A stretch of 64,000 nt of DNA from Spirulina sp. (lineage in GTDB: Bacteria > Cyanobacteriota > Cyanobacteriia > Phormidesmidales > Phormidesmidaceae). Each line of letters begins with the position of its first letter. The stretch's first letter is position 1. The position numbers and the translations under genes are program-made. Under the pieces are notes generated by a model. The model had not been told where the DNA came from. It saw only the letters and a list, made by a program, of their open reading frames with translations, and ran no database searches. Positions 56,021-56,284 of this stretch are shown piece after piece. Where the stretch lies: the NCBI GenBank assembly GCA_044070495.1, contig JBIPSI010000012.1, positions 1-64,000 on the forward strand, read 5' to 3'.

Positions 56021-56284
56021 CTACTGGATGAGATGGGTTAGCTCATGGGCAAGGAGATTGCGACCAACAGAAACTGTGCCACCTCTTCCAGGACCATCGG
56101 AGGGGAACCTGAAGCCCAGATCACTAACTTCAGGTAAGGTGGAAAACAGTAGGATAGTGCCTCGGATTTCCCCACCTGCGTAGGCTTGCATTTGGTCTTC
56201 TGTCAAGTCTGTGGTTCCAATGGCAGACAGCGGATCTAACGAATTTGGATGTTGTGAAATTGAGTTTCTGGTTTTCTTGAACAT
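56021..56284 (-). CDS. Double-Gly leader peptide P7 (PsaA FX-loop-like and DUF4157-like motifs)
   Basis: [13 protein letters not shown] / EIRGT...[15 protein letters not shown]...[20 protein letters not shown] RBS. Confidence 0.87.
   Translation of the reverse strand: [87 protein letters not shown]

Follow-up and report, generated by a model that had tools for sequence, protein, structure and literature searches.

Organization of the P7 locus

The window analysed here is a stretch of 64,000 nucleotides (nt) from Spirulina sp. (contig JBIPSI010000012.1 of assembly GCA_044070495.1, positions 1 to 64,000 of the forward strand) that carries, on the minus strand, an operon-like array of nine small open reading frames (ORFs) between positions 55408 and 58147, named pA, pB, P7, pD, pE, pF, pG, pH, and pI. 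P7, the third of them, is a real and selected small gene with a double-glycine (GG) leader in an export context, and the main result of the analysis is that many cores of this and of related arrays read as mosaics of short look-alikes of conserved host proteins. The leader of each of the nine peptides ends in GG (AGG in pG), and a Shine-Dalgarno-like site (at least GAGG or AGGA) lies ahead of eight of the nine ORFs, pG being the one without.

The P7 precursor (56021..56284, stop codon included; all P7 features lie on the minus strand) is 87 amino acids long and is preceded by the Shine-Dalgarno-like hexamer AAGGAG (56291..56296), 6 nt ahead of its ATG. Its leader, delimited by sequence and alignment, comprises residues 1-38 (56171..56284) and ends QMQAYAGG. 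Double-glycine leaders end in GG or GA and carry hydrophobic residues at positions -4, -7, and -12; P7 conforms to this consensus with Y, M, and L at the three positions, respectively, and both the GG and residues 25-33 (TDLTEDQMQ) are invariant in the five aligned sequences. An ABC ATPase on a Pirellulaceae contig (L028) that merely contains TDLTEDQM was dropped as a chance match.

The P7 core and its photosystem I module

The 49-residue core that follows the leader is a mosaic of three look-alikes, namely the start of helix 2 of ATP synthase subunit c, a cysteine-free FX loop of the photosystem I (PSI) protein PsaA, and the HExxH helix of DUF4157 proteins. In PSI, the FX 4Fe-4S cluster has the cysteines of this loop and two from the partner subunit as its ligands. 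The FX-loop look-alike occupies residues 50-73 (56066..56137) and is retrieved by Pfam, NCBIfam, phmmer, tblastn, and shuffle tests. The sequence-only reading had claimed a 14-of-15 match to PsaA at 56075-56119, the first 15 residues of the stretch 56-73 (56066-56119), with Ser and Val at the two cysteine sites, and the alignment to host PsaA bears this out: identity amounts to 14/15 over residues 56-70, 15/18 over residues 56-73, and 16/24 over residues 50-73, the two FX-ligand positions being Ser and Val. The host loop reads alike in both PsaA copies (contigs C22 and C30), as it does in both PsaB copies.

The match to PsaA is far beyond chance. The Pfam profile PF00223 (PsaA_PsaB) scores 24.2 bits on P7 (E 1.2e-5, cut-off 23.3), with 24 residues aligned to model positions 531-554 of 711, which correspond to the FX loop; over the whole genome, this profile has five matches, consisting of the four psaA/psaB genes and the P7 spot only. 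The loop is of the PsaA type, because the NCBIfam psaA model scores higher than the psaB model (22.6 vs 17.5 bits), and the top matches of a phmmer search of the PDB are all PsaA (E 5e-6). Against its own genome, P7 gives a tblastn E-value of 3.4e-6. In the shuffle tests, the best score of a real core against the genome ORFs is compared with that of shuffled cores; for P7, the real core reaches 46.9 bits and the shuffle maximum 36.3, so that none of 100 shuffles attains the real score. P7 is nevertheless not a PsaA/PsaB protein, since it has 87 amino acids in place of about 740 with 11 transmembrane helices and lacks the two FX-loop cysteines that act as 4Fe-4S ligands. The genome holds two complete psaA-psaB pairs (C22:20227-24690 and C30:836-5447), whose FX-loop DNA is 94-99% identical between copies.

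The segment that opens the core, residues 39-48 (56141..56170), resembles the helix 2 start of ATP synthase subunit c (host EGKIRGTLLLS), with 7/13 amino acids identical and one of seven codons the same. The tail, residues 74-87 (56024..56065), is identical at 9-10 of 14 positions to five host DUF4157 proteins, whose HExxH helix reads GQELIAHELTHVVQ. Pfam eCIS_core (cut-off 22 bits) scores only 18.1 bits on P7, with residues 72-87 aligned to profile positions 59-74; P7 does not have the DUF4157/eCIS_core domain of about 79 positions with its HExxH helix, and two orthologues read HD..H. The host proteins with the DUF4157-type motif, GQELIAHELTHV(V/I)Q, are large (frames of 634-928 amino acids), carry it behind a nearly identical N-terminal region, and look like a paralogous family of polymorphic proteins (motif sites at C8:68114-68200, C13:38436-38477, C14:2228-2314, C14:110245-110331, and C19:59893-59934).

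Conservation of P7 and codon comparison with psaA

Six distinct P7 sequences are available, those of L026, L027, L114, L115 (the same as L116), and the protein-only P0005 in addition to the window, and four relatives are present in a large protein database. A whole-P7 search of 61 genomes (the own genome and 60 relatives) matched 55 of them; among the matches listed, all but the own one lie in frames of at least 202 amino acids (psaA/psaB), with no orthologue. Conservation of the motif among orthologues had been set as a test by the sequence-only reading, and FPSDGPGR, including the Ser in place of the ligand, is kept in 6/6, encoded at the Ser by TCC, TCT, or TCA in the five sequences with DNA. 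The ratio of nonsynonymous to synonymous differences (pN/pS), summed over the 10 non-independent pairs of these five DNA sequences (67-86% identity), is 0.32 for residues 1-72. By region, it is 0.39 in the leader, 0.17 in the subunit-c-like residues 39-48, 0.77 in the linker 49-54, 0.16 in the FX-like residues 55-72, and 0.21 in the tail (3 pairs); the look-alike segments are the most constrained parts and the linker the least. Comparison with L026 gives a pN/pS of 0.25-0.59 for every array ORF compared and of 0.18 for the neighbouring protease. Against the objection that the ORF may be untranslated, both the Shine-Dalgarno site and the purifying selection argue for translation.

At the DNA level, the same codon is used at 7 (C30 psaA) or 9 (C22 psaA) of the 16 PsaA-identical P7 residues, and codon usage alone predicts about 4.5. 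The synonymous sites between P7 and psaA are near saturation, which excludes a recent capture of the loop from host psaA. The protein and DNA alignment proposed by the earlier reading therefore gives conserved amino acids over near-saturated synonymous sites, the pattern of a selected peptide, and its view that P7 is no plain gene fragment finds support in this codon comparison, in the orthologue conservation, and in the pN/pS of 0.16 in the FX-like segment vs 0.77 in the linker. For the look-alikes in general, the codon comparison likewise rejects a recent capture from the own genes: over all look-alike blocks, 55/156 identical residues have the same codon vs 46.8 expected from codon usage.

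The other peptides of the array

The closest counterpart of P7 is pH (57367..57564, minus strand, as are all the other array ORFs), whose core is a look-alike of the subunit-c C-terminus, VLLFANPFA, followed by one of the PsaB FX loop (44.8 bits, 0/100 shuffles). Host subunit c ends LVLLFANPFS-stop, and the pH core starts VLLFANPFA. Both cysteines of the loop are kept in two of the three known pH versions, L026 and P0007, in which the loop is also the end of the peptide at the stop codon. The L026 loop is identical to that of its own psaB at 18/18 amino acids, with 7/18 codons the same and a Ser encoded by TCA vs AGC. Of the 38 matches that a search with pH yields, three are peptides of this kind. 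PF00223 is present in the remaining 35, whose alignments span 30-35% of the query, and the two inspected among these are PsaB fragments. For the L026 loop, the best psaB DNA match among the matches listed from 400 genomes of the class is 84-85% over 53-57 nt, and no donor is identified by it. The 30 nt coding for VLLFANPFAG in L026 pH (L026:9300-9329) recur with 100% identity at the 3' end of atpH of G224 (L094), a distant genome, and with 93-96% identity in G413, G463, G267, and G281, and the own atpH agrees at only 20/36 nt; the full identity with G224 may reflect chance in codon choice or point to a donor lineage.

Further look-alikes make up the cores of pB and pF. The core of pB (55646..55924; 36.3 bits, 0/100 shuffles) combines a phycocyanin-beta N-terminus, a porin coiled coil, and a subunit-c-like end. 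It opens with MFDAFTKVV at the first residue past the GG, the host phycocyanin-beta-like N-terminus being MFDAYTKVV, and eight of the ten PDB matches listed are phycocyanin beta, aligned from 1-24 to 1-24 or longer (best E 0.079). Its middle, RLREEFQAELSPLR, corresponds to RLQEEFQAELATLR in the host SLH/OprB porins, and its end, GGVIRGTLLW, is subunit-c-like. The core of pF (56862..57047; 30.8 bits, 0/100 shuffles) joins LLFANPFA, again resembling the subunit-c C-terminus, to the C-terminus of an M50 protease, ending SLSGRLGIGG-stop vs SLAGRLGIGG-stop in the host protease.

Two peptides are less clear in the window and clearer in relatives. The core of pG (57119..57274) weakly resembles the EF-Tu N-terminus, 14/100 shuffles reaching its score, which is not significant; the L026 version has EF-Tu residues 3-20 as its top PDB match (E 0.09) and gives E 0.014 with 2/50 shuffles. 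In pA (55408..55614), IPWAHEKNSLA vs IVWAHERTPLA of PsaB is suggestive only, the shuffle test being not significant; the relative in G199 is clearer. No source protein was found for pD (56340..56540), a GG-leader peptide that has a Gly-rich end and is conserved in L027, L114, and L115, for pE (56576..56854), or for pI (57968..58147), a marker of related arrays present in 3/401 genomes of the class; PDB searches with the pA, pD, pE, and pI cores give nothing below E 1.7. The match at this value, between pI and the alpha subunit of glycine-tRNA ligase, was not counted and is not seen against the host genome. The pI core (57971-58051) is the best conserved across the arrays of the window, L026, and G199, and it is without a source match.

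The source proteins themselves are confirmed by Pfam. A Pfam scan of the cores does not detect the phycocyanin, EF-Tu, porin, and subunit-c look-alikes, which rest on BLAST, phmmer, motif scans, and shuffles. Across the arrays, segments from the N-terminus of a source (phycocyanin beta, EF-Tu, ribosomal protein S10) lie, in each case seen, no more than three residues from the mature N-terminus, and those from a C-terminus (subunit c, porin, M50) mostly close the peptide, the exceptions being pH and pF, in which the subunit-c piece comes first. A genome-wide regular-expression screen for GG-leader ORFs with cores matching the own proteome returned 62 candidates, of which only pH and pF matched in this way, the rest being paralogues or ordinary proteins.

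Related arrays in other genomes

Arrays of this kind are rare, as indicated by pI. A leader-type profile (A4) run over the 401 genomes of the class reports 38 genomes at E<=0.05, mostly weakly, and eight of the 30 returned loci were examined. The simplest relatives are the precursors of G194 and G195, whose entire core, LVLLFANPFA-stop, repeats the last ten residues of subunit c of the same genome, with 3-4 of the 10 codons the same; between the two genomes, 5/10 codons of this core differ with zero amino-acid changes. Their loci (G195, L112:15015-15394; G194, L113:15711-15860) are minimal, with an AraC gene, an ABC gene of C39 size, and one or two GG peptides. The second G195 peptide ends YGAVRATFRF-stop, and an SLH/OprB porin encoded in the window genome ends YGALRATFRF-stop.

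The array of G199, which belongs to another family (L111:12861-14960), comprises seven GG peptides flanked by HlyD, AraC, and C39-ABC genes and has no PatA-type protease. Its cores include a look-alike of the S10 N-terminus (E 9e-5, 0/50 shuffles), one of a pilin helix (E 0.003, 1/50 shuffles), and 14/14 residues of the subunit-c C-terminus with 0/10 codons in common with its own atpH, as well as the clearer pA relative, with two PsaB-like helix/loop pieces, and a porin coiled-coil end and C-terminal strand. The AtpH, S10, and porin-C-terminus look-alikes of G194, G195, and G199 are reached by 0/50 shuffles, and the subunit-c C-terminal look-alikes of four genomes are identical to the own atpH at 9-10 of 10-11 amino acids with 0-4 codons the same.

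G120 has the closest orthologue of the window protease (69% identity) and, beside its AraC gene, a 181-amino-acid ORF (L059:12030-12575) with no obvious GG leader that contains IRGTLIL (subunit-c helix start) and LPRLQEEFSAELATVRG (porin coiled coil) and ends with a look-alike of the subunit-c C-terminus, LVLLFANPFG-stop. At L115:4477-5784, a version of the array from a metagenome, P7 is followed directly by a 435-amino-acid ORF with a signal-peptide-like start and then by a HlyD-size gene, without pH and without the protease. The arrays differ in their cassette content.

Export context and putative island

The array is enclosed by export genes. An ABC exporter with an N-terminal C39 peptidase (59368..61515, plus strand) is identified by Pfam Peptidase_C39 (124 bits), ABC_membrane, and ABC_tran, and its N-terminus includes the catalytic-Cys stretch EEDCGAACL; a HlyD-family periplasmic adaptor (51168..52535, minus strand; HlyD_3) lies on the other side, so that P7 has both a C39 exporter and a HlyD adaptor in its neighbourhood. 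An AraC-family regulator (58472..59371, plus strand; Pfam) is divergent from the array and also stands beside the arrays of L026, G199, G120, and L115. Moreover, 45 nt downstream of pA and on the same strand lies a 643-amino-acid subtilisin-like protease of the PatA/PatG family (53432..55363; Pfam S8, PatG_D, and PatG_C; TIGR03895 at 736 bits, cut-off 421). Proteases of the PatA type occur in 16/173 genomes of the order, mostly beside PatG-size genes in ordinary cyanobactin loci. Between the window protease and HlyD, a 91-amino-acid ORF (53088-53363, minus strand) in which SIEEIEE occurs repeatedly ahead of AAAG resembles a further precursor of the leader type. A promoter and terminator scan of 52400-58600 gave counts at shuffle level.

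The GC content of the array is 44%, compared with 55% in the flanking genes and 57% in the genome. Similarity to L026 is confined to 51120-61582 of the window (83-89% nt identity), apart from a 70% match at 33061-34046 and a 75% match on contig C27; the flanks of 51120-61582 are unmatched. Between the two genomes, identity in psaA/psaB reaches only 76-81%, and the L026 genome, as we infer, belongs to another family of the same class. The higher and confined identity between such distant genomes suggests that an island of about 10 kb is shared laterally.

Proposed exported mimics and competing explanations

The explanation that we favour, to which we assign a probability of roughly 0.4, is that exported peptides of the P7 type act by specific mimicry of the segments they copy. 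By analogy with the EbfG/PteB export system described below, the C39 domain would cut P7 after Gly38 during export, and the mature peptide could be trimmed further by the PatA-type protease. Each module might then occupy the site of a natural binder, be it an assembly partner, a neighbouring subunit, a chaperone, or a protease, whether in related cyanobacteria or in the envelope of the producer itself. Specifically, the FX-like module of P7 could dock where the PsaA loop docks and would be unable to ligate FX, because Ser and Val replace the Cys ligands; this would agree with the suggestion of the sequence-only reading that a mimic retains shape and loses metal binding, and the loss of the cysteines would also be compatible with an exported peptide that avoids reactive thiols. 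The net effect would be interference with the assembly of conserved machines by a bacteriocin-like "poison fragment", P7 being one cartridge of a multi-target set directed at PSI, the ATP synthase c-ring, phycocyanin, EF-Tu, and porin. Specific mimicry is favoured because hydrophobic stretches are letter-perfect, because the loop is taken from both PsaA and PsaB, and because native termini are reproduced. A peptide that is only membrane-active should tolerate Leu/Ile/Val swaps, and hydrophobic segments such as the 14/14 one of G199 therefore point to specific recognition. A structure prediction combining the P7 core, host PsaC, and two 4Fe-4S clusters scored 0.00, was run without controls, and counts as evidence neither way.

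Several observations weigh against this explanation. PSI FX, phycocyanin, and EF-Tu all have their partners in the cytoplasm, so that an exported peptide would have to be taken up by some route, and no such route is evident; of the annotated ORFs of the window, none was recognised as immunity-like. Conservation after capture would also hold a peptide near its source without any mimic function, the P7 orthologues are few and close (67-86% identity, with non-independent pN/pS pairs), and residual shared ancestry with the C22 copy of psaA is possible, because 9/16 codons are the same vs 4.5 expected. The P7 tail (HELTH stretch) is out of frame in two of the five DNA orthologues (a 1-nt deletion in L026, a 20-nt deletion in L027) and the window pH has lost its loop end, hence parts of the array are decaying or dispensable. 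Individually, the phycocyanin match of pB in the PDB is weak (E 0.08), as is the EF-Tu look-alike of pG (E 0.09-0.7, 14/100 shuffles); the pA look-alike is not significant in the shuffle test, and the pD, pE, and pI cores have no detectable source in PDB searches and genome shuffle tests.

A different account, which is improbable and still the strongest of the rivals, holds that the cores are recycled building blocks, that is, old captured pieces of host proteins within ordinary exported peptides (membrane-active bacteriocins or EbfG-like biofilm-matrix peptides) that are under selection for a new function, so that the likeness to PsaA is meaningless. Many modules are indeed hydrophobic helices, cationic strands, or Gly-rich ends (pD and the end of pF are rich in G), a composition typical of bacteriocins, and the FX loop and the phycocyanin and EF-Tu N-termini are not of a membrane-active type. 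The C-terminal pieces share the stop position of their sources (M50 in pF; subunit c in G194, G195, G199, and G120), as expected if a captured fragment included its stop codon; random capture does not predict that the three N-terminal pieces (phycocyanin beta, EF-Tu, S10) all lie at most three residues from the mature start. Cassettes are gained, lost, and re-joined between arrays, and the EbfG peptides serve biofilm formation rather than killing, both in keeping with recycling; the letter-perfect hydrophobic look-alikes that persist after synonymous saturation, and the choice of the same homologous 20-residue loop from PsaA and from PsaB, are not. Reproduced free termini (N-terminal pieces at the mature N-terminus; porin, M50, and subunit-c C-termini at the peptide C-terminus) would also suit a signal or "danger" mimicry, in which exported copies of lysis epitopes are sensed as cues by a receptor or a peptide-binding envelope protease, with the AraC regulator in the loop, and elicit a population response. 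This is unlikely. Most sources, as identified by Pfam, rank with the most abundant proteins of a cyanobacterium (PSI, phycocyanin, the c-ring, EF-Tu, S10, pilin, and porin), the DUF4157 and M50 proteins being exceptions; constrained epitopes separated by relaxed linkers resemble a multi-peptide precursor, and an AraC gene is conserved beside the arrays. No receptor or import system was identified, and the change from Cys to Ser and Val makes P7 an imperfect copy of a lysis product.

The remaining two accounts are very improbable. If the locus were a recombination hotspot full of decaying fragments, with P7 not made or inert, then the frameshifted P7 tails of L026 and L027, the truncated pH of the window, the GC content of 44% against 55-57% in flanks and genome, and the rare and patchy distribution (pI in 3/401 genomes) would follow; non-functional debris would leave unexplained the pN/pS of 0.25-0.59 in every array ORF compared with L026, the concentration of constraint on the look-alike segments, the Shine-Dalgarno sites and the conserved leaders and GG, and the five of ten codons that differ between the G194 and G195 cores at zero amino-acid changes. 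The likeness to PsaA could also be that of a chance or convergent Gly/Pro-rich loop, perhaps grown from a DUF4157-derived core, given that DIFFRQGAYQPGSRGGQELIAHELTH of the host DUF4157 proteins can be aligned with P7 residues 55-87 (tblastn, 45% identity with one 4-residue gap, E 0.03) and has the FR...PG.RGG spacing in common. The PsaA match is much the stronger one, with 13/15 vs 7/15 identical residues over the same stretch and 37-47 bits; it is PsaA-specific by NCBIfam and beyond the reach of 100 shuffles, and a sister peptide copies the PsaB-specific loop at 18/18.

Extended from P7 to the whole family, specific mimicry would make the arrays a dedicated arsenal or signal set of exported self-segment peptides, natural dominant-negative copies of invariant interaction segments carried on a laterally moved island of about 10 kb, with P7 as a non-ligating "poison" PsaA FX loop; this is a tentative proposal, more doubtful than probable. 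Just as tentatively, the segments involved would be the PSI FX site (PsaA and PsaB), the c-ring, the phycocyanin-beta N-terminus, EF-Tu, S10, a pilin helix, and the porin C-terminal strand. Cyanobacteria often carry double-glycine peptide clusters, for nearly all of which no function is known. If the proposal is true, targets become predictable as the partners of the copied segments of PSI, ATP synthase, phycobilisome, ribosome, pili, and porin, and a broad action on other cyanobacteria is explained by segments that hardly vary; the peptides would then be a natural set of inhibitors or probes for the assembly of photosynthetic complexes and an example of protein-fragment mimicry that evolved into an exported product. 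Should the cores be recycled fragments, the arrays would illustrate how new peptide cores arise from pieces of housekeeping genes.

Comparison with known systems

The likeness of P7 to PsaA/PsaB (PF00223) is limited to the FX loop, which exceeds the Pfam cut-off; those proteins have about 750 amino acids, whereas P7 has 87, without the transmembrane core or the FX cysteines and with flanks unrelated to PsaA. In MicroProteins, dominant-negative fragments, and assembly-signal peptides that block the assembly machine, as in the proposed mimicry, the full-length protein has to compete for its partner with a short copy of the interaction segment. The known cases are intracellular regulators or laboratory peptides, in contrast to leader-dependent exported peptides of an array. 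Class II microcins and bacteriocins have a double-glycine leader, a C39 exporter, a HlyD adaptor, and immunity genes, and some microcins act on the membrane part of ATP synthase. They share the leader type, exporter, and adaptor with the window array, at which no immunity gene was recognised, and their cores are not known to be copies of segments of the target machine.

With the cyanobactin pathways, the window shares a PatA/PatG-family protease with about 50% identity to the PatA-like genes that stand beside PatG-size genes in relatives. A protease search of the genome gave only this one match and no PatG-size second protease, so that the PatA and PatG pair is not present; moreover, the window precursors differ in having GG leaders, and the related G199 array has no such protease. 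The window peptides match no cyanobactin precursor family in Pfam or NCBIfam (recognition motifs were not searched), and by the features examined P7 is not a cyanobactin precursor. All nine window peptides stay below the cut-offs of the NCBIfam and Pfam precursor families, and only pE touches one, the CTB family bacteriocin (13.9 bits vs 32).

The cyanobacterial double-glycine "bacteriocin" clusters of Wang et al. 2011 are reportedly widespread and made of C39-ABC and HlyD genes with arrays of short GG-leader precursors. This is the same chassis as that of the window array. A term look-up in the available text of that paper (PMC3140520) finds no mention of photosystems or photosynthesis, protease, subtilisin, or PatA, and a similarity of the cores to host proteins therefore appears not to be raised there. 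In Synechococcus elongatus, EbfG1-4 are several small co-transcribed GG-motif peptides that are cleaved and exported by the C39-peptidase transporter PteB and function in biofilm formation, according to the portion of the source available (PMC4997328). In being small cyanobacterial peptides of the GG type with a C39-peptidase transporter, they resemble the array as far as this account goes. The same portion of text (PMC4997328) reports no likeness of the EbfG cores to other cell proteins and no PatA-type protease at the locus, a distinction drawn from the description only. A search of full-text literature, including motif strings, in a corpus without most subscription journals, found no report of GG-leader cores that copy FX loops, the subunit-c end, or other host segments. 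The chassis of GG leader, C39-ABC exporter, and HlyD adaptor is thus a known one, the look-alike cores would be its new element, and the single-peptide observation on P7 is the visible tip of a family-wide pattern.

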